This document shows positions 1,001 to 42,706 of a DNA stretch of 42,706 nt, piece after piece. The position numbers were made by a program, and so were the translations under genes. Within the stretch, counting starts at the first letter, position 1; every line of letters starts with the position of its first letter. The notes below the pieces were generated by a model, which worked only from the letters and a program-made list of their open reading frames with translations, was not told the DNA's origin and did no database searches. This stretch comes from Caldilineales bacterium (GTDB taxonomy: Bacteria > Chloroflexota > Anaerolineae > Caldilineales > Caldilineaceae), in the NCBI GenBank assembly GCA_038247295.1, contig JBBRVA010000001.1, forward strand, positions 1 through 42,706. Direction: 5' to 3'.

Positions 1001-1075
1001 GTAAATAGTAAGTAGTAAGCAGTCACCGCGTCCACGGTTGACCTATTTACTAATTACTGCTTACTATTTACTAAT
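1001..1075. repeat. Heptad-periodic hairpin, class A (GTAAnnn units)
   Basis: Left arm is GTAAATA GTAAGTA GTAAGCA GTCACCG. Reverse-complemented right arm is GTAAATA GTAAGCA GTAATTA GTAAATA. Lies between the fabF stop (1082) and the fabH start (972). Confidence 0.85.
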
Positions 1076-3627: not shown

Positions 3628-3726
3628 TTAACTTTGTTTGGCGAGCAAAGCCCGCCACAATTAGCTTTGTTTGGCGAGCAAAGCCCGCCACAATTAGCTT
3701 TGTTTGGCGAGCAAAGCCCGCCACAA
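3628..3726. repeat. Three tandem 33-bp copies of the last 10 codons plus stop of the 3694..4368 gene
   Basis: Copies at 3628-3660, 3661-3693 and 3694-3726 read TTA(A/G)CTTTGTTTGGCGAGCAAAGCCCGCCACAA. On the minus strand each reads LWRALLAKQS-stop. Copy 1 differs by one synonymous Ser change (AGC to AGT). Confidence 0.95.
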
Positions 3727-4368
3727 TAAAACTGCGCCCCCTACAATCAGGACAAATGGCCAAATGTAGCCAAGCGCGGCCTCAAATGAGACGCCGATTA
3801 GAATGCCCATGATCAGCAAAACGGCCGCTGGAATCAAGGCCCAACGGGTATTTTGCTGGTGCTGTTTGGGTAACAGCGCCACCAGGGCAAAGGTTACGCC
3901 CAGGCCGATAAAGAAGAGGCCACCGCTTTCAAAGTTAGGTAAACCTAACTCATCGACACCCGCCACCGCCGCCAGTGTGACCATAACGCCACCCGGAATG
4001 AGCGCCCACCAGTGTTCAGAATTGGCGAGATAGACGAGCACAAAACCCATGCCAATCGAGGCGAGAAAGAGCGGTCCGGTTACCGGGTCTAATGCGGCTG
4101 GACCAAATTCGCTGATCAGAGAAATCGTCGCCAGGCCCAATAAGGTGCAGCCTGGAATCGCTGCCCACCAGGCTGCCTGCCGATCGTTGAGAAAAAGATA
4201 GAGGAAGAAGAGCCCACCAGCGCCAAAAAGCACAATCCAGACAAGCGCGCTCAGGCCGCTGAAGAGCCCAAAATTTTGCAGTAGAAATAAGACACCACCG
4301 ACAATCAACAGCAGACCCCAGATCGCATTGTTGCGTTTTAGATTATTATTTTGTTCATGGTTTTGCAT
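3694..4368 (-). CDS. Polytopic membrane protein built from repeated LiaF/DUF5668-like TM hairpins
   Basis: Start moved to the ATG at 4368 (MQNHEQNNN...), which has a strong AAGGAG Shine-Dalgarno about 9 nt upstream. About 6 to 8 hydrophobic helices (WGLLLIVGGVLFLLQNFGLF etc.). Confidence 0.75.
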   Translation of the reverse strand: MQNHEQNNNLKRNNAIWGLLLIVGGVLFLLQNFGLFSGLSALVWIVLFGAGGLFFLYLFLNDRQAAWWAAIPGCTLLGLATISLISEFGPAALDPVTGPLFLASIGMGFVLVYLANSEHWWALIPGGVMVTLAAVAGVDELGLPNFESGGLFFIGLGVTFALVALLPKQHQQNTRWALIPAAVLLIMGILIGVSFEAALGYIWPFVLIVGGAVLLWRALLAKQS

Positions 4369-4579
4369 AATAAATTTTCTCCTTACCGCGCTTTCTGCCG
4401 GCATCTTTGCCCACCCGCTACGCAGAACTATCTATTAAAATGTACACCACTCTATTATGAATTCCAATCACCATTAGGCGAGATCAATTCCTAGTCATAC
4501 GACCAGTGTCTATCGGCTAAATGGCAATGTAATTAACACTACGCAACATGCAAGGAAGAGTTGCTAGTTATACTTGAAG

Positions 4580-6987: not shown

Positions 6988-7009
6988 AACAGAGATCCTT
7001 ACCGAGCCT

Positions 7010-7079
7010 GTACAACGATTTTTCAAATCGTTCGTACATTGTAGGGGACTGATACGAACGATTTGAAAAATCGTCGTAC
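7010..7079. repeat. Nested palindrome / long hairpin
   Basis: GTACAACGATTTTTCAAATCGTTCGTAC (7010-7037) matches the reverse complement of TACGAACGATTTGAAAAATCGTCGTAC (7053-7079) with one mismatch. Each arm is itself palindromic (AACGATTT with AAATCGTT). Lies directly after the stop at 7081. Confidence 0.85.
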
Positions 7080-7080
7080 A

Positions 7081-10009: not shown

Positions 10010-10061
10010 TAGGGATTAGATATTGGGTATTACTCGCTTACTATCCAATATCTAATCCCTA
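10010..10061. repeat. Heptad-phased hairpin with a 17-bp perfect inverted repeat
   Basis: TAGGGATTAGATATTGG (10010-10026) pairs with CCAATATCTAATCCCTA (10045-10061). Reads in continuous 7-nt phase: TAGGGAT TAGATAT TGGGTAT TACTCGC TTACTAT CCAATAT CTAATCC. Confidence 0.9.
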
Positions 10062-12897: not shown

Positions 12898-14769
12898 TTA
12901 ATTCGCGGGAAGGGTGGCCGCAATCTGCAAAATATCCAGCGCATACTGGCGGCTTTCTGGTGGCAATTCATCCCAACCCAAGCCCGCTGCCAGATGCTTC
13001 AACACCTTGTCAATGCCCCAATTATAAGCGACCAACATCCATTCGGCCTCCGGGCGTCCCTGCTTGCCAAGCATCGTGCGCAGGTAGTCCAGATAGACGG
13101 CGGCGACGAGGGCGTTGCTGTAGCTGTCAAATGGATCCGACATTTCGACGACGGGCGCCCACTCGCGCCATGTATTCGGCATAATCTGCATCAAGCCCAT
13201 CGCCCCTCCATCGCCCAGCGCGACAGAGTCGAAGCTACTTTCGATATAAGCCTGAGCCGCCAACATGCGCCAACTCAAGTCGTAACGCCGGCCGATCGCA
13301 CGAAACATCTGCTGATAGGTCAGGTGTTGCTCTGGTGCGGCCGGTTGGACATCCGCTATGGATGCCGCTGACGCTGGTTGTTCGACTGGCGCCACTGCTA
13401 GATTCGGCGCTGGATCACCGGGCGCTGAGATCTGGGCCGGCAAAACTAACGGCACCGCTGGGTCTAGCGTAGACACCGGGATTGGTTGGTTGCCGTTGTT
13501 CTGATCTGCATCTAGCGCATTGATGATAGGTGATGCCCCTGGTGCATTTGTCAACGGGTTGGGCTGATTGGCTGGCAAGTTGACCATGATCGTGATGACG
13601 GGCGGCGCAGCAACTTGATTTGTGATCGGCTGGCTAGCTGCGCTTTGGCTGGCACGCAGGACAAGAAAGCCCATCAGCAGCATTGCCCCGGCCCCAACCA
13701 GCGCCAACAGGAAAAAACTCAACAGCGCCCCCACATGCCAGGGCCGGAACAACGGTTTGCAATCAACCTCGACCGTGGCACTGCGCGCCGACCCTGGCTC
13801 ATCCATTGGTGTAATTAACATACGGACCGTGGTGGCGTTCGGTTGCAAACCAAAAAGTGACAAGTTGCGGGCGGTCACGATGACTGGCAGTTGCGCGGTC
13901 TGGCCCGGTTGCAAGGTAACAGTAGACGGTAATTTGGGTGCTGGGGCAAGCGTACGCTGCTTTGTATAATTGCGATATACAGGTCGGACGCGCCCTTTCG
14001 TGGGCGTACGGGTGACTCGTTTCGCTTTTGGTGGTTCGTGGGTGGCTACCGGCAGGCGAAATTCAACACGCAGTTGGCGACGCGTATCGGCGCCTTGCAG
14101 ACGAAAAGTTGTGGCGCAATTGCTCCGATTGGTGACGGGTACGGTCATGTGCGCTGTACGCTTAAACCAAGAGAATGTCATCGCCTGGGGTCGTGCTTGG
14201 CCTACACTAAAATCTACATAAGGTTTAATGACGAGCAGCGCGCTAAGGCGGCTAAAACGCTGTGGATATTCGGGCGCACGCACTACAACGGCAAGCGGAT
14301 GATCACCAGCGGCAACTTTGGTTGACTGCGGGGGTGTAATAATGATAGTGCGTGTGGTGCGCTCCCCTGGATGCAAAAGGGCATGCAGCGGCAAATGGGC
14401 CGGTGTGGGCTCGCCATCCCGCCCTGGCGTCGTGATCCAACGCTCATCGATCCAGCCATCGACGAAGATCTGAAAGAGCGCTGTGCGGTCGCCCTTGTTG
14501 CACAGGGTTAGCTCTAATGTGGCAGCCGTACCTGCCGCAACTGTCACGTGACGCTGATCTAGTGTGGTGACAATTACATCGTCGAGGTGATCGGGGATGG
14601 TCTGATCCTGGGGCGCGACCTGCTGCGCCGGACGTTCTTCCACCTCCGTGGCTTCGCCCTCGATTTCGATTACCTGCCAATTGCGCAGCAACGAAGGCAA
14701 GCCGGCAACGGGTGTCTCGTCAGGTTCGTAGATTGGGTTTTCTGGTTGAGATTCAGAATCGTCAAGCAT
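12898..14769 (-). CDS. Membrane-anchored protein with a C-terminal soluble lytic transglycosylase (SLT) domain
   Basis: C-terminus AQAYIESSFDSVALGDGGAMGLMQIMPNTW (catalytic ES...GLMQ motif). One central TM segment (LLSFFLLALVGAGAMLLMGFLVL). The N-terminal half has Ig-like beta-rich segments. Confidence 0.8.
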   Translation of the reverse strand: MLDDSESQPENPIYEPDETPVAGLPSLLRNWQVIEIEGEATEVEERPAQQVAPQDQTIPDHLDDVIVTTLDQRHVTVAAGTAATLELTLCNKGDRTALFQIFVDGWIDERWITTPGRDGEPTPAHLPLHALLHPGERTTRTIIITPPQSTKVAAGDHPLAVVVRAPEYPQRFSRLSALLVIKPYVDFSVGQARPQAMTFSWFKRTAHMTVPVTNRSNCATTFRLQGADTRRQLRVEFRLPVATHEPPKAKRVTRTPTKGRVRPVYRNYTKQRTLAPAPKLPSTVTLQPGQTAQLPVIVTARNLSLFGLQPNATTVRMLITPMDEPGSARSATVEVDCKPLFRPWHVGALLSFFLLALVGAGAMLLMGFLVLRASQSAASQPITNQVAAPPVITIMVNLPANQPNPLTNAPGASPIINALDADQNNGNQPIPVSTLDPAVPLVLPAQISAPGDPAPNLAVAPVEQPASAASIADVQPAAPEQHLTYQQMFRAIGRRYDLSWRMLAAQAYIESSFDSVALGDGGAMGLMQIMPNTWREWAPVVEMSDPFDSYSNALVAAVYLDYLRTMLGKQGRPEAEWMLVAYNWGIDKVLKHLAAGLGWDELPPESRQYALDILQIAATLPAN

Positions 14770-14817
14770 GGGCTAAGTTTCGCTCATTCAAAGATGGCTG
14801 TCAATTCTACGGAAAGC

Positions 14818-15273
14818 TTACCAGGTTGTGAGGAGCGCAGGCAAATCAACTGGGTAGACGGCTAGACCTACTTGCTTTGCGGTTGTCCACAATGCTTTAT
14901 CAAAGGTCGCCATCGTTACGGTTTCACCAAGCACTAGTTGCCAACTGAAGGCAGCCGAGAGATGAACTGCATCATAGCCGCGCAGTCCAAAATCCCATGC
15001 CCAAATGGCGGCTTGATTAACTACCAACTCGTTCACTTCAATGCGGTAGATATTGGCCCAATCATTTTGAAAAATGACCAAACTGTGATTTGCCTGGCTT
15101 TTCGTTGCAATGCCTGTTCGCACCGATTTGGCGAACGCCGCGGCCATTTCGGCGTACGTAATCCGTGCCGTAGCAAACACATTGAGCCTCTGGATAAGGA
15201 CGCGTATGTCTGCGCCACCAGGCTCGATCGAGTAACGTTTGATCAGTGCGCTGGTATCGAGATAGAGATTCAA
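14818..15273 (-). CDS. vapC: PIN-domain toxin (VapC family)
   Basis: MNLYLDTSALIKRY (first acidic residue), YAEM and YDAVHL motifs. 4-nt ATGA overlap with the upstream antitoxin gene. Confidence 0.85.
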   Translation of the reverse strand: MNLYLDTSALIKRYSIEPGGADIRVLIQRLNVFATARITYAEMAAAFAKSVRTGIATKSQANHSLVIFQNDWANIYRIEVNELVVNQAAIWAWDFGLRGYDAVHLSAAFSWQLVLGETVTMATFDKALWTTAKQVGLAVYPVDLPALLTTW

Positions 15274-15599
15274 TCGCGGTTTTCCAAAACAAGCTGGGCG
15301 AGGGTTTTTTCAGCATTGGGCGCTAGGTGGACCAGTTCTGATTCATCAATTGGTTGAACCTTTTTCCCGCTCCAAGAAGCAAAGCCCGCATCGATCATCT
15401 CTTGCAGGCGCTCCTCCCTCGTTTTGGGCAACGGTACAATTCGTCCAATAGGTTTGCCATGTTCCGTGATCGTTAGCGTTGCGCCGGCTTTCACTTGTTG
15501 CAAGTAAGCGCTCAATTGCGCTTTCAACTCTCTAATACCAACAGTGGTTTCTGGCAGCGCGGTTTCTGCCGCAGATGATTCTATCATTACTTGGTTCAT
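15270..15599 (-). CDS. Phd/YefM-type antitoxin
   Basis: GIRELKAQLSAYLQQVKAGATLTITEHGKPIGRIVPL is the typical prevent-host-death antitoxin N-domain. Overlaps the vapC start. Confidence 0.8.
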   Translation of the reverse strand: MNQVMIESSAAETALPETTVGIRELKAQLSAYLQQVKAGATLTITEHGKPIGRIVPLPKTREERLQEMIDAGFASWSGKKVQPIDESELVHLAPNAEKTLAQLVLENRD

Positions 15600-15644
15600 C
15601 GATTATATTTCCCCCATCGCGTCCATATACCCAATCTTTTGAGA

Positions 15645-15677
15645 CTACAATGTATCATTTGTGTCTACAATTGGCAA
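15645..15677 (-). promoter_or_regulatory. Candidate TA promoter with a direct-repeat operator
   Basis: Minus strand reads TTGCCA (15677-15672), a 17-nt spacer, then TACATT (15654-15649). ATTGTAG is repeated 20 nt apart (15671-15665 and 15651-15645), flanking the spacer and overlapping the -10 by 3 nt. Confidence 0.4.
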
Positions 15678-15678
15678 A

Positions 15679-17343
15679 TTACCGCGCAAGGTGCAGGAGC
15701 AGGTTGGCATCGATCTTTTCCAGGCTGGTGATTGTCCGATCTGGCCAGCGCACTTCCAGTTTTACCAATTGAGCCGCGGCTGGAAAGCCAAAATGCACGC
15801 GCGGTGGATCACCGGTTAGATAGCCACTGGCGGCGCGTACGTCACGCGTATAGATGCCAGTGCTGGTGTGTAGAATTAATTGTGCGCCGATGGCCTGGCG
15901 ATTTTGACTTTGCGGCCAGTCCAATTCGACTTGCAAATTGTCCCCACCACAAAGCTGATTCTCGAATAATTGGGCTGGGCTGCGCAGATTGTTGACGACA
16001 ATCTCCAGGTCACCATCGGCATCCAGATCAGCCATGCCCATGCTGCGTCCGCTGGCGGTGCTATTAAGCTGCCACTGCGGCATGGCTGTAAAGCGCCAGC
16101 CATCCTCATTGCGAAAGGCCTGGTTTTCCTCCACCAATTCGTGGTTGGGCAAATGGCCAAAAATCTTCTCTTCGATCATACCGTTGACAATGTAGAGATC
16201 GAGATAGCCATCGTTGTCCAGGTCGCCAAACCTGGCCGCCCAACTCCAGCCTGTCCCGTTGATCCCCAAACTGGCGGCCAAATTAAAATAACGACCCTGG
16301 TCATCGCGCGTCTGGAGGACATTTTCCATCACCTGCGGATCATCGACGGTATGTTCTTCCGCCATCATGTCAAGCATCATTGGCTCCCAAGCGGCCATAT
16401 CCTCAGCGGCGTACGGTTTCATGTCAGAGGCAAAAAATTCCGCGACGCCATCATTGTTGACATCGCCCTGATCGAGGCTCATGGTGCTGTGCGTCGTGTT
16501 GACAAAAGGTGTTGCCGCCGTCCAACCGCCATCGGTCTGCACCCAAGCTTGATCGCGTACAGCAAAATCGTTGCCAATCCAAATGTCGAGGCGCTGGTCG
16601 TGATTGATATCAAACAGTGCCACGGCCAGCGCCTGTGCTTCGCTGGCCAGCAAGGTAGGGTAGAAACGTCCGTCCCGATTTTCGTAATAAATGACACCGC
16701 CCCCTTGGTTGAGCAAATAACTGTTACCCAAGTCCGAGAGAAAACCAGCATCATAGGAAGCGGTGACCAGATCCAGATCGCCGTCACCATCCAAATCCCC
16801 CCAGTTCAAGGCATAGGCGGCTTTGGCTACGCCGGGCAGCACCGTCTTTTCAAAATTGCCGCCTGTGTTACGCCAATAGTTGAGCGCACCGGTATTGAGC
16901 GTCAACACAATATCGCGCCATCCGTCCGCATCAACGTCCACCACTGTGATCGCACGGGTTGGACCTTGACCAAAGGTCGTCTTGCGGAAATTTAGACCGC
17001 CCTCATTCCACAAAATCGTATTTGGTTCACGATAGCTGCCCAGAACAAGATCAAGGTCACCGTCATTGTCCAAATCGTTGATGGCCAGGCCAGCGCCATT
17101 TGCATCAAATTGGCGTATGATTCCATCAACCGTGGTTGTTGTATGGTCCAACGTATGCGTGACAAAGGTATCGGTGCAATCCGCAGGGGTGGCAAGGGGT
17201 GTCTTACGCACAAGCAGAGACGCAGTCTGTACAGGTACAGACGCAGGAGTGGCAGCGCTCTGCTGCGTTCCTGGTAGGGTGCATGCCCCGAAAATTTGAA
17301 CGAGCAAAATTAGCCCAATGACGCCAGTAGCCTTATGGCTCAT
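15679..17343 (-). CDS. CRTAC1-family lipoprotein (FG-GAP/VCBS repeats plus ASPIC/UnbV C-terminal domain)
   Basis: Lipobox LVQIFGAC. Repeated DxDGDGDLD Ca-binding loops (DLDNDGDLDLV, DVDADGWRDIV, DLDGDGDLDLV, DLDNDGYLDLY, DLDADGDLEIV). UnbV-like tail (AIGAQLILHT...RVHFGF). Confidence 0.8.
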   Translation of the reverse strand: MSHKATGVIGLILLVQIFGACTLPGTQQSAATPASVPVQTASLLVRKTPLATPADCTDTFVTHTLDHTTTTVDGIIRQFDANGAGLAINDLDNDGDLDLVLGSYREPNTILWNEGGLNFRKTTFGQGPTRAITVVDVDADGWRDIVLTLNTGALNYWRNTGGNFEKTVLPGVAKAAYALNWGDLDGDGDLDLVTASYDAGFLSDLGNSYLLNQGGGVIYYENRDGRFYPTLLASEAQALAVALFDINHDQRLDIWIGNDFAVRDQAWVQTDGGWTAATPFVNTTHSTMSLDQGDVNNDGVAEFFASDMKPYAAEDMAAWEPMMLDMMAEEHTVDDPQVMENVLQTRDDQGRYFNLAASLGINGTGWSWAARFGDLDNDGYLDLYIVNGMIEEKIFGHLPNHELVEENQAFRNEDGWRFTAMPQWQLNSTASGRSMGMADLDADGDLEIVVNNLRSPAQLFENQLCGGDNLQVELDWPQSQNRQAIGAQLILHTSTGIYTRDVRAASGYLTGDPPRVHFGFPAAAQLVKLEVRWPDRTITSLEKIDANLLLHLAR

Positions 17344-17532
17344 CCATTCACTCCCTTAACCTATCGCCTACCACCATTGATCCGCATTGGCGGGCTGTAT
17401 TCACCCTGCAAAAGCACACATTCGGAGAAATTCGCTGCCAACTCTATCCCAAGTGTAAACCTAATCACAGACTTAGTCAATCATCTCGTCATGATGGAGT
17501 AGCCGCTCTTTTACGCCTAGCTTGCTGATTTG

Positions 17533-17561
17533 TTGTGGATACACAACGCGTGCTCTATAAT
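17533..17561 (+). promoter_or_regulatory. Candidate topA promoter
   Basis: TTGTGG, a 17-nt spacer, then TATAAT (17556-17561). The -35 lies within the small palindrome TTGTGGATACACAA. It would give a roughly 235-nt structured leader. Confidence 0.3.
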
Positions 17562-17802
17562 AGCGCCGGTTTCATCCTGGAAAACGCTCGCTACAGATTA
17601 GGTGCAATTGCGCATGGCGATTGCCCAGTAAAAACTGAGCGATCTGTGATATTCTAGGCAAATCGCCAAACGAGCAATGAATTTATCGAGAAATGGTATT
17701 CATAGGATAGGCGGGCGGCTAAACAAAGCTGTGAAATCGCCGACCCCAGGTCGGACGTATCCTGTGGATAATGAAGATTAATTTGGACTTATTGAAAATC
17801 TA

Positions 17803-20514
17803 ATGACAAAACTTGTAATTGTTGAATCACCGACCAAAGCCAAAACTATCCGTAATTACTTGCCCAAAGAATATCATGTCGAAGCCAGTATGGGCCATGT
17901 GCGCGACTTGCCCGCTTCGGCCGCCGAAGTGCCGGAAGAGCACAAAGGCCAACCGTGGTCGCGCCTGGGCGTGAATGTGGAACAGGCATTCGATCCGCTC
18001 TATGTCATACCGGCGACGAAGAAGAAAGTTGTTGCCGAACTGCGCAAGGCGCTCAAAAATGCCGATGAATTAATTCTGGCGACCGACGAAGACCGCGAAG
18101 GTGAAAGCATCGGCTGGCATCTCTACGAAGTGCTCAAGCCAAAGGTGCCAGTGCGCCGCATGGTCTTTCACGAAATCACACGTGAAGCGATCCAGAAGGC
18201 GCTCAAAGAGACGCGCGCCATCGATCAAGACCTTGTGCATGCCCAAGAAACGCGCCGTATCCTCGACCGCCTTGTTGGCTATACCGTGTCACCCTTGCTC
18301 TGGAAGAAGATTGCGCGTGGCCTCTCGGCCGGGCGTGTCCAGAGCGTGGCGGTGCGGCTGCTTGTGCTGCGCGAACGCGAACGCCGCGCCTTTCGCTCGG
18401 GCACCTACTGGGACCTAAAGGCGCTGCTCAACAAGCGGCCCGACCAGCCAACTCATCGCTTTGAAGCGAATCTGATTTCGGTGGGCGGCGTGCGCGTGGC
18501 CAGCGGCAAGGACTTCGATGAAAATACCGGCCGGGTGGCAGACGCTAAAAATGTGCTGCTGCTCGATCAGCGGCAGTCCGAAGCGTTGCGCGACCGGCTA
18601 CTCAAAGGGCTCTGGCGGGTGACCGATCTGGAAGAAAAAGAGGCAACACGTTCGCCGTCGGCCCCTTTTACAACCAGTACGCTGCAACAGGAAGCCAACC
18701 GCAAGCTGGGTATGGGCGCCAAAGAGACAATGCGCGTGGCGCAGAAGCTGTATGAAGAAGGCTACATCACCTACATGCGTACCGATTCGGTTAACCTGAG
18801 TGAGCAAGCCGTGCAAGCGGCGCGCCAGCGGGTCACCGAACTGTATGGCGCCCAATATCTGAGTGATAAACCGCGCCACTATGCCACTAAAACTAAGAAC
18901 GCTCAGGAAGCGCATGAAGCGATTCGGCCCGCCGGCGACCAGATGCGCCCGGCCGACGCGCTGCCGATTTCCGGGGACGAACGCCGACTCTACGATCTGA
19001 TCTGGAAACGCACGGTTGCCACACAGATGGCCAATGCCCGGCTCAAATTTACCACCGCTACGATTGGTGTCGAAGATGCACTCTTCCGCGCCAGTGGACG
19101 CACCGTGCTCTTCGCGGGCTTCTTCCGTGCCTATGTCGAAGGGTCGGACGATCCAGAAGCAGCCCTGGAAAGCCAAGACGCACCACTGCCGCCGCTGGTT
19201 GTCGATGAGCAGGTCGATTGTCGCGATCTGGAAGCGGTGGGCCACGAAACCAAGCCGCCGGCGCGTTATACCGAAGCGACATTGGTCAAGGCGCTCGAAG
19301 CTGAGGGCATTGGCCGGCCCAGCACCTACGCGTCGATCATCGACACCATCCAGCAGCGCGGCTATGTCTTTAAACAGCGCAAGGAATTGGTGCCCACTTT
19401 TACCGCCTTCGCTGTCACCGAATTGCTGGAAGATCATTTCAACGATTTGGTTGATTTGAACTTTACGGCCACCATGGAGCAAAAGCTAGACGACATCGCC
19501 AATGGCGAAGCCGACTGGTTGGCTTATCTGCGCCAGTTTTATCAGGGCGAAGGGGGATTGGAAAACCAGGTCAAGGTCAAAGAGGCGGGCATCGACGCAC
19601 GGTTGGCCAGCGGGGTAACGCTGGAAGATCTGTCCGCCGAGGTGCGGATTGGCCAATTTGGTCCTTTCCTGGCCAAAGAGGTAAATGGCGAACGGCTGAC
19701 GGCCGGTTTGCCACCCGATTTGCCGCCGGCTGATCTGTCGGAAGCGATGGTCGAGCAGTTGTTGAGCCAAAAACTCGACGGTCCCCAAAATCTGGGTGCA
19801 GATCCGGTGACTGAACGCCCAGTTTTGCTCAAGGTCGGCCCCTACGGCCCCTATGTCCAGCTGGGCGAAGAGAGTGCGGATAGCAAAGCCAAACCGAAGC
19901 GCGTTAGTCTGCTCAAAGGCATGGAAGCGGGTAGCATCGATCTGAACATGGCGCTCCAACTCTTGAATCTGCCGCGCAGCCTGGGTGAACACCCAGAAAC
20001 CGGCAAAGAGGTCAAGGCTGGCGTAGGACGTTTTGGTCCCTACGTTGTTTATGATGGCGCCTTTGTCAGCTTGAAGGCGAGCGATAGTGTGCTCGATATT
20101 GAGCTAGACCGCGCGCTTGAATTGATTGCGAGCGCCGCTGAGCGCAAAGGTAAACGTGGCGCCAGTGGCAGTACCGGCGGCAAAAATGTGCTCAAGGTGC
20201 TGGGTGATCACCCTGATGGTGGGCCTGTGCAGGTGCTAGATGGCAAATATGGGCCGTATGTGAGCTATCAAAAGATTAACGTGACCCTGCCCAAAGAGAT
20301 GAAGCCAGAAGAGGTGACGTTGCCCCAGGCATTGGCCTGGTTGACAGAAAAGGCTGGCACGAAGCCATCCGGCAAAACCACAGCGCGCAAGAAAGTGAGC
20401 AGCGCAAAATCGCCAACAGTTGCAGCCAAGACTAAGAGCCCAGCCACGAAGAAAGCGCTTCCGTCATCTACCAAAAAAACAGCCGCCAAGACGACCAAGA
20501 AGCAGAAAGCATAA
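17803..20514 (+). CDS. topA: DNA topoisomerase I with a Cys-free GxxGPY-repeat C-terminal domain and a Lys-rich tail
   Basis: [16 protein letters not shown] (Toprim), [15 protein letters not shown] (active-site Tyr). Four Topo_C repeats ([28 protein letters not shown]). No CxxC zinc ribbons. Tail is [29 protein letters not shown]. Confidence 0.95.
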
Positions 20515-20515
20515 G

Positions 20516-20566
20516 CTCATCTGGCAAAGTGCGCAAACCGGTGTTTTGCGCACTTTGCCAGATGAG
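20516..20566. terminator. 22-bp perfect hairpin immediately after the topA stop
   Basis: CTCATCTGGCAAAGTGCGCAAA (20516-20537) pairs with TTTGCGCACTTTGCCAGATGAG (20545-20566). No U tract directly follows on the plus strand, so termination may rely on the next hairpin. Confidence 0.55.
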
Positions 20567-20567
20567 T

Positions 20568-20609
20568 AAAAAACATAAAGAAAGCGCTCTAGTGTTAGAG
20601 CGCTTTCTT
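20568..20609 (-). terminator. Rho-independent terminator of the HNH gene
   Basis: 14-bp perfect stem AAGAAAGCGCTCTA (20578-20591) with TAGAGCGCTTTCTT (20596-20609). It overlaps the HNH stop codon. A UUUUUU run follows on the minus strand. Confidence 0.75.
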
Positions 20610-28476: not shown

Positions 28477-28575
28477 GTAAGAGGGTAAATAGTAATTAGT
28501 AAATAGTAAGTGGTAAGCGTTCATTGACGCTCCTAACCAATGACTATTTACTAATGACTATTTACCAATGACCAA
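28477..28575. repeat. Heptad-periodic hairpin, class A
   Basis: GTAAATA GTAATTA GTAAATA GTAAGTG GTAAGCG, loop, then TGACTAT TTACTAA TGACTAT TTACCAA TGACCAA. Phase is kept through the loop. Lies between the coxM-like stop and the coxS-like start. Confidence 0.85.
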
Positions 28576-28599: not shown

Positions 28600-29475
28600 T
28601 TAACTAGCGCGCGCACGCTCGATGGCTTTTTCCAGCGTGCGGCGGGTGATAACACCCACCATGTGTTTACGATATTCCGCCGTGCCGCGCATATCGCTGA
28701 TCGGTGTGGCCGCCGCCTGAGCAATTTGGGCGGCTTGGGCGATCGACTCGGCATTGACGAGTTGACCGACTAGGGCATCGCCGGCAGCTGGCACAAAGAG
28801 TGGCTTAGGCGCTACAGCCCCCAAGGCAATACGGGCGGAGACGAAACGGCTGCGGCTCTCGTCTAGCTGAACCGATGCGCCGACACCCACCACGGCAATG
28901 TCCATTTCGTTGCGGGGAATGAAGCGTAGGTAGGCGGCGCCAAACCCAGGCTGCGGTGCAGGAATGTGCAGCGCAACCAAAAACTCGCCGGGCTGCAATA
29001 CGGTGCGCCCGGGCGCAATACAGAACTCTTCTACCGGCACTTCGCGCCGGCCACTGGGGCCTGCAATCTGGCAGATGGCATGGTGCGCGATCAACGACGG
29101 AATCGAGTCTGCTGCAGGTGAGGCATTGCAGAGGTTGCCGCCCATGCTGGCGCGTCCCTGAATCTGCACACCACCAATCAGACCGGCGGAATCGATTAAG
29201 CTGGGGTAGGCCGCCACAATGGCCTTATCATCATACATACGGTGGCAGGGAACTGCTGCCCCCAAGGTCAGGCCGCTTTGGGGGTTGTAGGACAGCTCGG
29301 TGGTTTCGGGAATGCGCTTAACATCGATAACCAGTTCCGCCTTGCGCCTTCCTTCGCGCAGCGCTACCAGCAGATCGGTGCCGCCACACATGACGCGCGC
29401 CTGATCGCCTTTTTCTTTCAGCAGCGCTACGACCTCATCAACAGTGGTCGCGGATGCAAAATCAAATGCTTGCAA
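28600..29475 (-). CDS. FAD-binding medium subunit of a xanthine-dehydrogenase/CO-dehydrogenase-family enzyme (CoxM-like)
   Basis: MQAFDFASATTVDEVVALL, MCGGTDLLV and GGNLCNASPAADS motifs. C-terminal CO-dehydrogenase flavoprotein domain with GTAEYRKHM. Confidence 0.85.
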   Translation of the reverse strand: MQAFDFASATTVDEVVALLKEKGDQARVMCGGTDLLVALREGRRKAELVIDVKRIPETTELSYNPQSGLTLGAAVPCHRMYDDKAIVAAYPSLIDSAGLIGGVQIQGRASMGGNLCNASPAADSIPSLIAHHAICQIAGPSGRREVPVEEFCIAPGRTVLQPGEFLVALHIPAPQPGFGAAYLRFIPRNEMDIAVVGVGASVQLDESRSRFVSARIALGAVAPKPLFVPAAGDALVGQLVNAESIAQAAQIAQAAATPISDMRGTAEYRKHMVGVITRRTLEKAIERARAS

Positions 29476-32964: not shown

Positions 32965-33036
32965 GTAAGTGGTAAGTGGTAAATTAGTAATTGGTCGCAC
33001 CAGCTGCTACTTACCACTTACTAATTTACTACTTAC
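32965..33036. repeat. Heptad-periodic hairpin, class A, between convergent genes
   Basis: GTAAGTG GTAAGTG GTAAATT AGTAATT, loop, then CTACTTA CCACTTA CTAATTT ACTACTT AC. Lies 7 nt after the plus-strand stop and 5 nt before the minus-strand stop. Confidence 0.85.
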
Positions 33037-34218: not shown

Positions 34219-34288
34219 GGTAGACGGTAGGCGGTAGTCAGTAAACGGTAAGCAGTGATCGTTCGTCTATCGTCGTTAGTCGTTGTTC
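34219..34288. repeat. Ten strictly phased heptads (composite class A-like plus class B)
   Basis: GGTAGAC GGTAGGC GGTAGTC AGTAAAC GGTAAGC AGTGATC GTTCGTC TATCGTC GTTAGTC GTTGTTC. Position 3 is T and position 7 is C in all ten units. Confidence 0.9.
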
Positions 34289-35810
34289 AATATGCGCCTC
34301 GTCCCCGTAACACAGCGGGGATGGAGCGCAGAAGAATGCCAAAATCTAAGGCCAGGCTCCAATTTTCTATGTAGTAAATATCTAACAGCACCATTTCGTC
34401 GAAGGTCAACTCGCTGCGTCCACTCACCTGCCACAGGCCAGTCATACCCGGGCTGGCTGAGAGCCGTTTCTTGTGCCATTCATGGTAGTGTGCCACCTCT
34501 TGCGGCAGGTTTGGACGTGGGCCGATCAAGCTCATTTCACCGAGGAAGACGTTGTACAACTGCGGTAATTCATCCAGGCTGTAGCGGCGCAAAATACGGC
34601 CTACTCTTGTCTGGCGTGGGTCATCACGCACCTTAAAAAGTGGCCCGCTAGCCTGGTTGAGATCGGCTACCGTGTGCAGTAGCTCATGCGCCCCCTGCAC
34701 CATCGAGCGAAATTTGTGACACTGAAACAGCTTACCATTGCGGCCAACGCGAGTTTGTGAGTAGAAGAGTGGCCCCGGCGAATCTAACCGAATCGCCAAC
34801 GCAATCAGCGCCACAAGCGGTAACGCCAACAAGCTAAAGCAGACCGTCAGTATCAGATCCGATATACGCTTGAGAATCAAATTCCAACCTTGGATTGAAA
34901 CCTCGCGCGTGCTGATCAGCGGAATGCCATTTAATTCCTCTACGGCAAGCTGGTTTTTCGTCAACTGGAAGAAATCTGGCACGACTTGGGCGCGCACGCT
35001 AAACTGTTCGCAAGTGCGCAGCAAACGTTGAATGGTGCGATGGCTTTGCCAGGGCAGACAGACAATCACGCGGTCGACGCTGCCCTTCTCCAAAATCTGC
35101 GCTACATTTCCGATCGAACCGAGCGCTTTGAAGCGCCCAATATCGTTGTTGCCCTTGTTTGGGTCGTCATCAATAAATCCGACCAATTGGTAGCCTAGAT
35201 CGGGCCGCGCTGCCACTGTGCGCATCACCATACGGCCAACATCACCGGCCCCCACCAGCAAGACGCGCACGACGCCAATGCCGTAATGGCGTAAGTGCTC
35301 GCGCCCCAATGTAATGATAAAGCGGCTGATGCCCAGCAAAATGGTCACCAAAATGGCTGTATACAGAAAAATCAGGCGGCTATAGAGCAATTGACTAAAT
35401 ATCAGGTTGAAGGCGATCAAGACGACCACACTCGCTGTTGCTGCCGTGCCAATCAAATAGACTTCTTCCACCAGGTTGCGACCGTAACGGTAGGGGTAAA
35501 CACCAGAGAAACGCAGCGAGAAGAGGCTGACAATGACCAGAACCAGGGCGAATGGCGCATAAGCCCACAAACTCAACTGGAAGGCTGGGTCGACACTGCG
35601 AAACCATTGCAGTTGATAACGCAAATAGTAAGCGCCCAGAAACCCGATGAGAATGAGCACACCATCCGTCAACACCAGTAAATATTTCCACGCATCCGGG
35701 GGCACGCGACGCGCAAGCTTGGCCAAGCGACTATCTTGGTGTGGATTTGCGCCCGCCGTCCGTGCCGCTATCGCGGCGTGGGCAAGGTTGATCTGATCAG
35801 CTGTTGACAT
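34287..35810 (-). CDS. Polyprenyl-phosphate hexose-1-phosphate transferase (bacterial sugar transferase, WcaJ/EpsL-like)
   Basis: N-terminal TM helices and a central Rossmann-like segment (LLVGAGDVG). C-terminal KRISDLILT...LDSPGPLFYSQTRVG...KFRSM...DELPQLYNVFLGEMSLIGPRP. Confidence 0.9.
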   Translation of the reverse strand: MSTADQINLAHAAIAARTAGANPHQDSRLAKLARRVPPDAWKYLLVLTDGVLILIGFLGAYYLRYQLQWFRSVDPAFQLSLWAYAPFALVLVIVSLFSLRFSGVYPYRYGRNLVEEVYLIGTAATASVVVLIAFNLIFSQLLYSRLIFLYTAILVTILLGISRFIITLGREHLRHYGIGVVRVLLVGAGDVGRMVMRTVAARPDLGYQLVGFIDDDPNKGNNDIGRFKALGSIGNVAQILEKGSVDRVIVCLPWQSHRTIQRLLRTCEQFSVRAQVVPDFFQLTKNQLAVEELNGIPLISTREVSIQGWNLILKRISDLILTVCFSLLALPLVALIALAIRLDSPGPLFYSQTRVGRNGKLFQCHKFRSMVQGAHELLHTVADLNQASGPLFKVRDDPRQTRVGRILRRYSLDELPQLYNVFLGEMSLIGPRPNLPQEVAHYHEWHKKRLSASPGMTGLWQVSGRSELTFDEMVLLDIYYIENWSLALDFGILLRSIPAVLRGRGAY

Positions 35811-35908: not shown

Positions 35909-36046
35909 GGTAGATAGGTAAATAGGGAGATAGGTAAACAGGGAGATAGGGAGACCGCGCAGAACTGACTTGTGTACCTTGGGTCGGCCACCCTTGACGG
36001 TGTTACCGGGAAGAGTACCTGTCTACTTGTGTACCTGTCTATCGAC
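35909..36046. repeat. Octad array plus partially complementary direct repeats
   Basis: GGTAGAT then AGGTAAAT AGGGAGAT AGGTAAAC AGGGAGAT AGGGAGAC (35916-35955). Downstream, ACTTGTGTACCT occurs at 35969-35980 and 36025-36036, and GTACCTGTCTA occurs twice (36015-36025 and 36031-36041). The latter is partly complementary to the left array. Confidence 0.7.
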
Positions 36047-39361: not shown

Positions 39362-39898
39362 ATGAGCATAATTAAATATAGAGCAATCAGTAATGACCAG
39401 CTGGCAAACGAATTACAGGCTCAGGGCATTCACTTTCTTGGTGTGGCCCAGCCGAGCAACTGCGTTCCTCTGCTTGCACCAACCGATCTCATTGTCGGCC
39501 TGGCGCAGAGCAGTGAAGCGCGTCTACGTCTGGCGCTGATCCCACTCTTTTTGCGCCGTCCAGATTTTGCCCAATTTGTGGTCGCTAGCCGTCAATCAAT
39601 GGAACCACCATCATCGATCACATTGAACTGTTATTACAGTGCCGCTGTAGTGTTGCAACAGAAGTATAAGGATGATTTCGCGCGTTTTGGCTATTTGCCA
39701 GATTTGTTTACCAAGGAACTAAACATTCCTCAAGCGGGTTCACCGGCGCTGCGTCTAAGCCAATTAGCCCAACGGCACGCCGAACTGAGTGGGGATGCGA
39801 TTAACTGGCTAGGCACCTATGAGCACGCTGCACAACGCCTACGCAAGTATTTACAACAAGAGATGAATAATCAAAGGGTGCTTCAGAAGATCGTATGA
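39362..39898 (+). CDS. Hypothetical helical protein, translationally coupled to the downstream nucleotidyltransferase-fold gene
   Basis: 178 aa with no family recognised. Its stop overlaps the next start (ATGA at 39895-39898). Confidence 0.6.
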   Translation: MSIIKYRAISNDQLANELQAQGIHFLGVAQPSNCVPLLAPTDLIVGLAQSSEARLRLALIPLFLRRPDFAQFVVASRQSMEPPSSITLNCYYSAAVVLQQKYKDDFARFGYLPDLFTKELNIPQAGSPALRLSQLAQRHAELSGDAINWLGTYEHAAQRLRKYLQQEMNNQRVLQKIV

Positions 39899-40428
39899 TC
39901 AACTTAAACGCTGATGTCGTGCGCGATTTTCTCGTTCGTCTTGGCCAGCGTTATGACGAACCCGCCAATTTGTATCTGGTTGGCGGTGCCGCGCTCTGTT
40001 TGCTGGGCAGTCTGCGTCCAACCCTTGATCTAGATTATGTAGGCAGTGACATTCGAAAAGATGCGCTGCAACAGGCCATTGACGCGTTGGCAACCGAAAT
40101 GCAGCTAGATGTGGAAGCGGTGCCACTAGAGCAGATGATTCCGTTGCCGGTTGGCGCAGAGCAACGCAGTCAGTTGATTGGTCAGTTTGGCAATATCACC
40201 GCCAGCATCTTCGACCCATACAGTATTGCCTTTAGCAAGTTGGCGCGCGGCTTTGATACCGATATCGACGATGTGGTTTTTCTCCTGCATCACGGCTTGC
40301 TCACCTTGCCCCAATTAGAAAGTGTCGTCAATCATGGCATGCGCGACGGACAAAAGTTCGATATTATGCCCAGCGAACTGCGCAATAACTGGCGGGCATT
40401 GCAGCAGCGGTTGTCGCGTGCGCAATAA
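39895..40428 (+). CDS. Minimal nucleotidyltransferase-fold protein (AbiEii/DUF6036-like motif)
   Basis: [25 protein letters not shown] matches the GG..x..G..R.T.DxD NTase signature. A later acidic cluster is [12 protein letters not shown]. Confidence 0.6.
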
Positions 40429-40451: not shown

Positions 40452-42706
40452 ATGGCTCTTTCCGAAGTTCTCGCCGATCTCCGTTCTGACGCTCAGTTTA
40501 TGAGCAATGTGGTCGCTTGGCGCACCATGCCGGCGCGGCCGGCGCGCTATATGCCAATTCCAACGGCGCTGCATCCGGCATTGCACACGGTCTTGGCGCA
40601 ACGTGATATCTATCAGCTCTATAGCCACCAGGTCGAGGCGGTAGAGCTAGCCTTACAAGGCCAGCACGTTGTGATCGTAACGCCAACAGCGAGCGGCAAA
40701 ACCCTCTGTTACAACTTACCGGTTTTGCACCATCTGCTTACCGATCCGTCTGCGCGCGCCCTCTATCTTTTTCCCACCAAAGCGTTGGCGCACGACCAGT
40801 TGGATGAGATTGGAGATTGGGGATTGGAGATTGAGCATCTTATCCCCAATCTCCAATCCCCAATCTCCACTATTTATCCCGCCACCTACGACGGTGACAC
40901 GCCAGCCGGCGAACGCACCCGTATCCGCAAAGAAGCGCGCCTGATTTTGAGCAACCCCGATATGTTGCACGCCGGGATTTTGCCCTATCACACCACCTGG
41001 GCCGAGTTCTTCGCCGGTCTGCAATTTGTAATCATCGACGAGATGCACACCTATCGCGGCGTCTTTGGCAGCCATGTTGCCAATGTATTGCGTCGCTTGC
41101 AGCGCATCTGTGCCTTTTACGGCAGCCGGCCCCAGTTTATCTGTACCAGCGCTACAATTGCCAATCCCGGTCCGTTGGCGGAGCGGCTTGTGGAGCAACC
41201 GGTTACTGTTGTCACTGAAAACGGTGCGCCCAGCGGCGAAAAACAGATCATTCTTTACAATCCCCCGCTTTTCGATCCCGAACGCGGTCTGCGCCGCAGC
41301 GCCACGTTGGAAGCCCAAGCATTGGCCGCCCGCTGCATTTTGGGCGATGTGCAGACAATTGTGTTTGGGCGCTCTAGATTGACGACGGAGGTATTGCTGA
41401 CCTATCTGCGCGAGCGGGTTGGAGCGGATGCGCGGGAGAAGATTGAGAGATTAGGAGATTGGGAGATTGGGCGTGCATCCCCGCTGAATCCACAACTGGC
41501 GATTCGTGGCTATCGGGGGGGCTATTTGCCGACCGAGCGGCGCGCGATCGAGGCTGGTTTGCGCAGCGGTACGGTGCGCGGGGTGGTGGCGACCAATGCG
41601 CTGGAACTGGGCATCGATATTGGCCAATTGCAAGCAGCCATCCTTTGCGGCTATCCCGGCAGCATCGCCAGCACCTGGCAACAGATCGGCCGCGCCGGCC
41701 GCACCCGCGAGGCTGCATTGGCCTTGTTGGTTGCCACCGGTGGCGCCCTTGACCAGTATATTATCCGACATCCTGAATTTATCTTTGAGCGTTCGCCCGA
41801 ACATGCGCTGATTAACCCCGACAACCTGATGTTGTTGGTTGACCAGGTGCGTTGCGCGGCTTTCGAATTGCCTTTTCAGGCCGACGAACCGTTTGGCGCT
41901 TCACTATTTACGGGTGATGTTTTGCATCTCTTGGCCGAGCAGGGTGATTTGCAACAGCATGGTGCGCGCTTTTTCTGGAGTGGCGATGGCTATCCGGCGC
42001 GCCAGGTCAGCTTACGTAGCGCCGGTAGTGATACGGTGGCGATTCAGGTAGGGGAGACAGGGCGACAAGGGTCAGCACGGATTATTGGCGAGATTGACCA
42101 TGCGAGCGCGCCTTTGTTGGTGCATGATGGGGCGATCTATCTGCATGAGGGCCAGAGTTATCGAGTCGATAGTTTGGACATGGCGAACAGTTTGGCCCAG
42201 GTGACGCCCGTGGAGGTCGATTATTATACGCAAGTGGCCGCCGAAACAACGATTGAGGTGTTAGCCGAGCATGAACAGCGCGCTACCCCAGGCGCTTTGG
42301 TGGCACATGGGGACTTGCAGGTCAGTGCGCAGGTAATCGGCTTCCGACGGATTAAGCGCTACACGCATGAAAATTTAGGCGTCTTCCCCTTAGATTATCC
42401 ACCGCAGGTGATCGAAACTAGCGGCTACTGGTTCAGCATTTTGCCCACGGTGCAGCGACAGCTGGAAGCGACCGGACAATGGTACGATTCGATCAACGAT
42501 TATGGACCAAACTGGCAAGCGCAGCGCACGCTAGTGCGGGCGCGCGATCATTACCGCTGTGCCCGTTGCGGCGCGGTAGAAGCGCCAGGCCGCCAACACG
42601 ATGTCCATCACTTGATCCCATTTCGCACCTTTGGCTACGTCCCTGGTCTAAATGAGCACTACAAACTGGCCAACCAATTGAGTAATCTAATCCTCGTCTG
42701 CCGCAC
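40452..42706 (+). CDS. DEAD/DEAH-box helicase with a C-terminal DUF1998 zinc module (MrfA/YprA-like); 3' end beyond the window
   Basis: Not in the ORF track (no stop in the window). Manual translation from the ATG at 40452 is open to the end. Motifs: TPTASGKT (motif I), [14 protein letters not shown] (motif II), [17 protein letters not shown] and QQIGRAGR. The DUF1998 part contains HYRCARCG...HHLIPF. Confidence 0.9.
40808..40868. repeat. Heptad-periodic palindrome (class C, GATTGGR) inside the helicase reading frame
   Basis: GATTGGA GATTGGG GATTGGA GATTGAG CATCTTA TCCCCAA TCTCCAA TCCCCAA TCTCC. Contains a 22-bp perfect inverted repeat. Translated as [22 protein letters not shown]. Confidence 0.9.
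41441..41472. repeat. Octad array (GATTGAGA GATTAGGA GATTGGGA GATTGGGC) inside the helicase reading frame
   Basis: Four phased 8-nt units translated as [12 protein letters not shown]. The complementary arm downstream is only vestigial. Confidence 0.8.

Follow-up and report, generated by a model that had tools for sequence, protein, structure and literature searches.

A palindromic heptad element inside a helicase reading frame

The stretch of DNA analysed in this study, hereafter the window, comprises 42,706 nucleotides (nt) of contig JBBRVA010000001.1 from a Caldilineales bacterium (Chloroflexota, Caldilineaceae), and close to its end a palindromic element made of tandem 7-nt units (heptads) lies within the gene for an MrfA/YprA-like DEAD/DEAH helicase (Table 1). 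The open reading frame (ORF) of this gene starts at 40500 and leaves the window at residue 735 without a stop, while full-length homologues reach about 911 amino acids (aa) and add HNH and MZB/DUF1998 domains, among them P0001 and P0002, both 99% identical and 911 aa long. The host protein matched PDB entry 6znp over residues 2-648 with E = 7.6e-193; the Pfam domains DEAD, Helicase_C and WHD_HRQ1 were found in the window ORF, and PF09369 (MZB) and PF01844 (HNH) in the 99%-identical P0001. The best NCBIfam match was TIGR03817, with 651.7 bits against a cut-off of 874.1. Judged from sequence and domain matches, the gene fits the MrfA/YprA (DUF1998/MZB) group, with a superfamily 2 core, a winged helix and a C-terminal MZB domain, and appears close to Bacillus subtilis YprA.

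The whole element spans 64 nt (40806-40869), with four units, an 8-nt spacer and four further units in reverse complement. When folded as a perfect stem, 13 bases (40834-40846) stay unpaired; alternatively, a repeat finder describes 28-nt arms, 93% complementary, around a 3-nt loop. An initial annotation, made from the letters of the window alone, had given 61 nt, a perfect inverted repeat of 22 base pairs (bp) and a one-heptad loop, which came close to the 64 nt, 23 bp and 13 unpaired bases found here but was not exact. Allowing at most one mismatch, GATTGGRGATTGG occurs five times here, whereas 100 shuffles gave 0.13 occurrences on average and never as many as five. As RNA, the predicted fold has an energy of -48.3 kcal/mol (z = -8.6); for DNA the energy is -26.6 kcal/mol (z = -8.0), and none of 200 shuffles was as stable in either case. 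Two contigs of other metagenome samples carry the same element at 98-99% identity, with 1-3 substitutions, and since these contigs are independent an assembly artefact was rejected. The palindromic heptad element is confirmed as real and far beyond chance.

That the element is read in frame inside an MrfA/YprA-like helicase, as the initial annotation had it, was borne out by the stop-free translation, the 6znp match and the Pfam domains. Conserved helicase motifs flank it on both sides, and the upstream one, previously called motif Ib, we take to be motif Ia (PTRELA-like) in DEAD-box nomenclature. The palindrome lies in codon register, with ATT at 40830, for instance, pairing with AAT at 40848, and the peptides of the two arms therefore mirror each other (I/N, E/L, L/Q, G/S, W/P, D/I). 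Read in frame, the 7-nt repeat yields a 7-aa amphipathic repeat, EIGDW[GR]L. Neither GAGATTG nor GGGATTG holds a stop codon in any of the six frames, so that such arrays can be read through inside an ORF, and the GTAAATA-family heptads of the window's intergenic hairpins contain TAA or TAG, a comparison of intergenic with genic heptads that is partly circular. Six-frame freedom from stops is a necessary condition for life inside an ORF, yet about half of all heptads have it, and the idea that it acts as a strong filter was rejected, the effect being real but weak. Short arrays within ORFs sometimes even use stop-containing heptads, staying under three units (AATTGAC in L097).

No Rfam family reached its threshold for the element, and permissive Rfam matches were rejected as generic hairpin hits to microRNA precursor models (32-34 bits against gathering scores of 97-100). 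No intrinsic terminator or promoter was flagged at the element by a scan that covers loops of 3-8 nt only.

Table 1. Coordinates of the helicase gene, the heptad element and other heptad features in the window
Feature	Position	Strand	Remarks
Host gene, MrfA/YprA-like DEAD/DEAH helicase	40500..42706	+	Stop-free translation; PDB 6znp; Pfam
Left array, four heptads GAGATTG GAGATTG GGGATTG GAGATTG	40806..40833	+	Tandem Repeats Finder period 7, 4.0 copies; encodes EIGDWGLEI(E)
Spacer AGCATCTT, 8 nt	40834..40841	+	Between both arrays; hypervariable among orthologues
Right array, four reverse-complement heptads ATCCCCA ATCTCCA ATCCCCA ATCTCCA	40842..40869	+	Period 7, 4.0 copies; encodes IPNLQSPIS
Hairpin, 23-bp perfect stem (40811-40833 with 40847-40869)	40811..40869	+	Own stem scan and fold
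Site 2, second array of the same motif, AGATTGAG AGATTAGG AGATTGGG AGATTGGG	41437..41471	+	Four units, period 7-8; 12-aa peptide
Possible remnant of an unrelated heptad array (GCATCCC..), weakly supported	41475..41495	+	Read from site-2 sequences of relatives
Intergenic heptad hairpin, GTAAATA/GTAAGTA	1001..1071	.	Between two convergent genes
Intergenic heptad hairpin, GTAAATA/GTAATTA..., 31-nt arms	28484..28566	.	Just downstream of minus-strand gene 28600-29475
Intergenic heptad hairpin, GTAAGTG/GTAAATT	32972..33036	.	Between two convergent genes

Orthologous copies and the extent of the insertion

While the initial annotation expected a lineage-specific insertion of roughly 10 to 20 aa, homologous peptides of the same length proved to be present in distant orthologues, and the element is therefore not lineage-specific. 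An alignment of 120 homologues (62-99% identity) gave segment lengths of 19 to 68 aa among the full-length ones, with mirror peptides of this kind in many distant homologues; P0058, at 66% identity, carries a 29-aa peptide at the site, as do P0004, P0005 and P0006. When syntenic DNA of L082 and L161-L164 was compared with the window, exactly 87 nt between the anchors and a hairpin at the same place were found in every one of these loci. The hairpin is carried by orthologues of 65-79% protein identity, and at four-fold degenerate third positions the identity of the distant orthologues L161-L164 to the window is 0.34-0.41, that is, saturated. The left arm is nevertheless identical at 23-28 of 28 bases (82-100%) and the right arm at 17-26 of 28 (61% at the lowest), whereas the 13-nt spacer shares only 1-6 of its 13 bases. 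L162, a locus of 67% protein identity in which the site holds a perfect 29-bp stem of (GAGATTG)4, agrees with the window at 17 of the 19 third-codon positions of the arms (P about 2e-5 at p = 0.41).

The copies differ among themselves in instructive ways. L164 has gained 7 nt in the left array and lost 7 nt in the right one, which keeps the total at 87 nt; the hairpin of L161 is decaying, with 6 mismatches in 27; L166 holds another heptad (CAGAGAC/GGTCTCC) in 38 aa; and L083-L085 and L091 are at the 19-aa baseline with the hairpin missing. Close strains differ by single uncompensated changes. Apparent compensatory changes at the peptide level in P0005 were rejected, the DNA copy being merely in decay (6 mismatches in 27). 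The comparison shows the hairpin to be orthologous across relatives with saturated synonymous sites. It is an old feature, either resident for long or recurrent, and not a lineage-specific or recent insertion.

How much has been inserted was measured between P[TS]K[AS]L..DQ and YDGDT at 113 loci. The baseline is 19 aa in 57 of the 113, with 18 aa in 10 more, and the 19-aa group takes in Bacillota and other non-Chloroflexota loci. With 29 aa in the window, the net gain is therefore 10 aa (30 nt) from an element of 64 nt, and an alignment with B. subtilis MrfA shows a gap of 7+3 residues exactly at the element. The left-arm peptide matches the native helix pattern L-x-E-[LI]-x-x-W-x-x-x-[LI] after motif Ia, Trp included, as seen in the 19-aa sequences LAELSAWQTAL (L083), LVELHGWVESL (L007) and VAELMAWSDEL (L068); Trp stands at position 7 in several such baseline sequences from different phyla. 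An AlphaFold2 model (mean predicted local distance difference test score, pLDDT, 83) has a continuous helix at residues 94-114 that covers the left arm and a loop at 115-126 that covers the right arm; with block averages of 71 (residues 111-120) and 80 (121-130), the right-arm loop is the lowest-confidence part of this region of the model. The left arm is thus predicted to stand in for a native amphipathic helix, and only the spacer and the Pro-rich right arm would form an extra loop of 10 aa.

These results partly support the earlier interpretation that a repeat palindrome had been incorporated and was tolerated as a surface loop: an extra low-confidence loop is indeed modelled over the right arm, but the net gain is only 10 aa, and the left arm overlays the native helix and is itself predicted to be helical. 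They also bear on the proposal that a mobile palindromic element, similar to a miniature inverted-repeat transposable element (MITE) or to a Rickettsia palindromic element (RPE), inserted recently and independently into a permissive surface loop in each lineage. The segment is longer than in MrfA and than the 19-aa baseline, different heptads occupy the same site in different loci (AATTGAC in L097, TTTCATC in L018 and CAGAGAC in L166, those of L097 and L018 as hairpins), the two clades with GAGATTG at this site lie apart in a neighbour-joining tree, and RPEs are a precedent for palindromes read in frame (PMC10969869). However, position, 87-nt length and array boundary are equal in orthologues whose synonymous sites are saturated, the net gain is merely 30 nt for an element of 64-69 nt whose left arm overlays native helix codons, and copies at different loci have no common full-length consensus. 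No target-site duplication was found in the flanks ...CAGTTGGAT (5') and CTATTTATCC... (3'), nor was a terminal inverted repeat visible there beyond the arrays, the whole element being an inverted repeat, so that the combination of terminal inverted repeats and target-site duplication that marks a MITE is lacking. We consider recent independent insertion rather improbable.

RPEs deserve a closer comparison, as these palindromic repeats lie in frame within unrelated protein genes, presumably at places where the protein fold can accommodate them (PMC10969869). An in-frame location in conserved protein genes is common to both. RPEs are about 100-150 bp long, have a family consensus and a conserved peptide, are specific to Rickettsia and are not built from tandem 7-nt units, whereas the element here is 64 nt of 7-nt units, and the hairpins of like design elsewhere in the window are unrelated to it in sequence. 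It also replaces native helix codons in part, unlike the pure insert of an RPE.

The peptide itself might be the selected feature, with EIGDWRL as a helix extension and PNLQSPIS as a Pro-rich linker that together form an interaction or regulatory surface. The left arm, for which a helix is predicted, does follow the hydrophobic and Trp pattern of the native segment, and the peptide is kept in two clades. Selection on the peptide alone does not, however, require conservation at the third codon positions of the arms, the same loops hold unrelated peptides of other heptads or no insert at all, and the right-arm loop has the lowest model confidence in the region; we give this explanation only a slim chance.

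Heptad arrays in the helicase gene and elsewhere

The element, at what we call site 1, is not the only array in its gene. Alignment with B. subtilis MrfA leaves a 19-aa gap at site 2 (Table 1), where the baseline outside Caldilineaceae is 7-8 aa, and the array there has no complementary arm left. Relatives carry full hairpins or other heptad arrays there: the site-2 hairpin of L162 is almost identical to that at its site 1, both with 4+4 units and a 13-nt spacer, and L165 and L162 have identical arms at site 2 but, by our own count, agree at only 5 of 13 spacer bases. One-armed CCAATCT arrays lie at site 2 in the Anaerolineae loci L115 and L116, and a long GGGGATT array at site 1 in L087. The possible remnant at 41475-41495 resembles decayed GCATTCC heptads: L163 and L164 have GCATTCC/GCACTCC arrays at the corresponding position, and L086 a CCGCATT hairpin arm.

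A census of strict period-7 arrays of at least 24 nt was made in 28 Caldilineaceae-like loci (L001-L005, L023, L083-L100, L161-L166 and the window). It counted 39 arrays in 73.6 kilobases (kb) of helicase ORF, where about 2.6 would be expected at the background rate, 5 more within 400 bp upstream of the helicase gene, and 9 across the remainder of the 254 kb outside the helicase, orthologous arrays not being independent events. Within the helicase they concentrate at four hot spots, at about aa 100-160, 310-390, 560-590 and 800-915, and many different heptads are used. At the protein level, 8-mers that perfectly period-7 DNA could encode were found in 37 of 120 MrfA-like homologues and in none of 120 homologues of the window's UvrD/PcrA-like helicase (Fisher P = 5e-13), a control set that is taxonomically broader and includes Thermaceae. 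The only clear in-frame array noticed outside the MrfA-like gene is a CAATCTT array in L001 (15317-15342, within a 1306-aa ORF at 13762-17682), read as HTQSSIFNLS in an interdomain linker. That ORF reads like the transcription-repair coupling factor Mfd, which would presumably make it another DNA-repair helicase.

Tolerance of the four loops, together with inheritance, may explain this concentration. There is a small chance that the link between the repeats and the MrfA-like helicase-HNH gene is one of function and not just of location. One form of such coupling would be a self-regulating or phase-variable switch on the repair helicase-nuclease, formed by the arrays in and just upstream of its gene; in another, the helicase-nuclease would make, maintain or resolve heptad hairpins genome-wide, and the repeats would gather at its gene as repetitive extragenic palindromic (REP) sequences do around RAYT genes.

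A related proposal is that arrays and hairpins are a selected cis-regulatory or contingency device of this helicase gene. A perfect mRNA stem of 23-29 bp might limit expression of the helicase-nuclease through RNase III cleavage or stalling of the ribosome or RNA polymerase, or slippage by ±1 heptad might switch the repair gene off and on by frameshift. Several observations are in line with this: the arrays concentrate at the four hot spots, the nucleotides of the arms, unlike those of the spacer, are kept even where synonymous sites are saturated, L162 repeats the same design at both sites and shares its site-2 arms with L165, the fold energy is as low as given above, and the +7/-7 event in L164 shows that slippage happens. 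In addition, 94.9% of stem cells are paired in a 7-sequence alignment, and three pairs have changed on both sides, although the two units involved, GGAGATT and GGGGATT, are both common variants and may equally have replaced one another. Selection on an mRNA hairpin should favour G·U pairs, but of the mismatches in 11 imperfect in-gene stems 13 are sense G·U and 15 are A·C (P = 0.85), so there is no evidence for it, and the earlier suggestion of an effect of the hairpin in the mRNA found no sign of selection on its side. The hairpin has decayed in L161 and is wholly missing in L083-L085 and L091, site 2 of the window has decayed as well, four units per arm are short for a fast phase-variation tract, and no terminator-like tail was flagged. 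On balance we find a selected device unlikely, though it is the alternative that we take most seriously.

Outside the helicase, the intergenic hairpins of the window have the design of the element, with heptad units at about four per arm, which agrees with the initial annotation, but they use other heptads (GTAAATA/GTAAGTA/GTAAGTG). Four were noted, those in Table 1 and one at 10010-10061, with GTAAATA/GTAAGTA-type or TAGGGAT units; three of the four stand at gene 3' ends, two of these between convergent genes, in terminator- or REP-like positions. Within the window, the 42.7 kb of this genome that the analysis covered, GATTGG arrays are confined to the helicase. In other genomes, intergenic GAGATTG hairpins or arrays exist in related Chloroflexota (L002 at 18070, L013, L001, L162, L167 and L168) and in Nostoc. 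A search with an artificial EIGDWRL.../NLQSPIS... peptide probe, uninformative on large proteins, returned only hypothetical ORFs of 31-95 aa called over arrays, many in number and spurious, from Chloroflexi and Nostoc where the organism was named. C-rich CCAATCT arrays end right upstream of start codons or ribosome-binding sites at L162 773-785 (helicase ATG at 788), L013 5318-5330, L001 22038-22050 and L168 ~2650-2715.

Other repeats were seen in the window. Three copies of a 33-nt unit (TTAGCTTTGTTTGGCGAGCAAAGCCCGCCACAA), 98% identical, occupy 3628-3727, where the minus-strand ORF 3694-4404 has its 3' end, and every copy includes a small stem GCTTTG...CAAAGC of its own. Long perfect palindromes without heptads lie at 7009-7080 (28-bp stem), 20516-20566 (22-bp) and 20578-20609 (14-bp), the second of which, probably a terminator, follows immediately on the stop codon of the topoisomerase I gene (17803-20514). 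Intergenic arrays at 34219-34290 and 35909-36045 have periods of 7 nt (GGTAGAC...) and 8 nt (GGTAGATA/AGGGAGAT); their partner arrays are only partly complementary, and both features look like degenerate or nested kin of the heptad hairpins.

As for the helicase and its neighbours, the HNH domain (PF01844) lies between the winged-helix and MZB domains in the Caldilineaceae MrfA-like proteins (P0001 residues ~690-760; window 42570 onward), and matches to Bacillota homologues stop near residue 647, ahead of this region. An anti-phage defence role of the helicase was rejected, as PADLOC gave generic helicase-core matches only. Directly upstream are two small ORFs, 39362-39898 and 39895-40428, overlapping by 4 nt, for which PADLOC and NCBIfam gave no match; both are kept at the same place in L164 and L166, where one is DUF6036, and they may be a toxin-antitoxin-like pair.

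Known heptamer repeats and a model for persistence

The initial annotation knew of no equivalent for such a heptad element, but Rehm et al. (2015, PMC4692102) described dispersed heptameric G-rich repeats, with the unit GGGAATC in Xanthomonas and GGGGA(C/T)T in Nostoc PCC 7120, some of them in inverted pairs and some intragenic. Four units are preferred, and of 186 repeat patterns in X. campestris pv. campestris, 70 are convergent inverted pairs that could fold into stem-loops; most copies lie between genes, close to gene 3' ends, while 7-11% in Xanthomonas and about a third in Nostoc are intragenic (PMC4692102). The same 7-nt core is found here as GGRGATT, one of the four units being exactly GGGGATT and the others having G changed to A, and the 4+4 convergent arms resemble the pairs reported there. 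In-frame translation, retention among orthologues and concentration in one gene are not analysed in the text available to us (PMC4692102).

A G-quadruplex has been proposed for the GGGNATC repeats, and the G-rich arm here might act as one, as it belongs to the same repeat family with its preference for four units (PMC4692102). The G-runs of the left arm are 2, 4 and 2 (GATTGGAGATTGGGGATTGGAGATTG), however, and not four runs of at least three G, and with a perfectly complementary arm 8-13 nt away the hairpin is the likelier structure. The host differs too, being a Caldilineaceae-like member of Chloroflexota, and as the G-tracts alternate between GG and GGGG a quadruplex is very improbable. The Nostoc and Xanthomonas heptamers are said to correspond to the cyanobacterial STRR1 repeats of Mazel and colleagues (1990).

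REP sequences and their REPIN doublets, reportedly described by Bertels and Rainey in 2011, are said to be inverted doublets mobilised by RAYT transposases, with a hairpin of ~60-110 nt whose arms are conserved around a less conserved spacer. They typically lie at gene 3' ends, as do the intergenic heptad hairpins of the window; unlike the present copy they are extragenic, with one sequence per family, whereas the heptad hairpins of one genome use several heptads. A further case is the TAACTGA heptamer, a direct repeat found in Beggiatoaceae, Cyanobacteria and Bacteroidetes, with many copies just upstream of start codons and few inside ORFs, where they are read only in the stop-free orientation (MacGregor 2015, PMC4679880). 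The likeness lies in dispersed 7-nt tandem repeats, and CCAATCT arrays also abut start codons in L162, L013 and L168; the TAACTGA repeats differ in being almost always direct, in their heptad and in having their in-ORF copies at protein termini rather than in internal loops of a conserved enzyme. By its sequence and layout the element appears to be of the same class as the described heptamer repeats, a known kind found here in a form that is read in frame and kept among orthologues.

How the hairpin could have persisted is the remaining question. In our judgement there is about an even chance that the element is a resident copy of the dispersed heptad-hairpin class, a passenger kept by processes at the DNA level and filtered by selection on the protein, and not selected for mRNA structure. 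It occupies a length-variable segment of the MrfA-like helicase, and its arms could be kept alike if the arrays slip, if one arm serves as the template for correcting the other when the palindrome extrudes, or if other copies in the genome convert them, singly or in combination, with neutral decay between such resets. The spacer would turn over fast because it forms the unpaired tip. The open reading frame would limit change to length-neutral events, of which +7/-7 is an example, and the open frame and the helix-compatible left arm would act as filters. Since a G·U bias is absent among the stem mismatches, upkeep looks to be at the DNA level and not by selection for mRNA structure, and the conservation of the arms against a scrambled spacer would be best fitted by periodic resetting of this kind.

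Several points weigh against this passenger explanation. A pure passenger does not explain the concentration in one gene (39 arrays in 73.6 kb against 9; 37/120 against 0/120), nor the same 29-aa design in two GAGATTG site-1 clades that are not neighbours in the neighbour-joining tree. The right arm and tail of L162 and L163 are identical at 38 of 40 bases although the genes are saturated, and this needs strong constraint, conversion or transfer. The three stem changes on both sides are also expected under selection for pairing, and the homogenising mechanism is itself something we infer.

To our knowledge, heptamer repeats (STRR, GGGNATC) have been known since 1990 without an accepted origin or function. 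The present locus makes orthologous copies of one hairpin traceable across deep divergence, with arms whose nucleotides are preserved around a scrambled spacer, with compensated slippage (+7/-7) that saves the reading frame, and with a 7-nt DNA repeat that becomes a 7-aa amphipathic helix able to replace a native one. It is a concrete case of selfish or mutational repeats remodelling proteins outside Rickettsia, and if the concentration of arrays in this helicase gene is not mere tolerance, it could point to a long-missing factor tied to these repeats.

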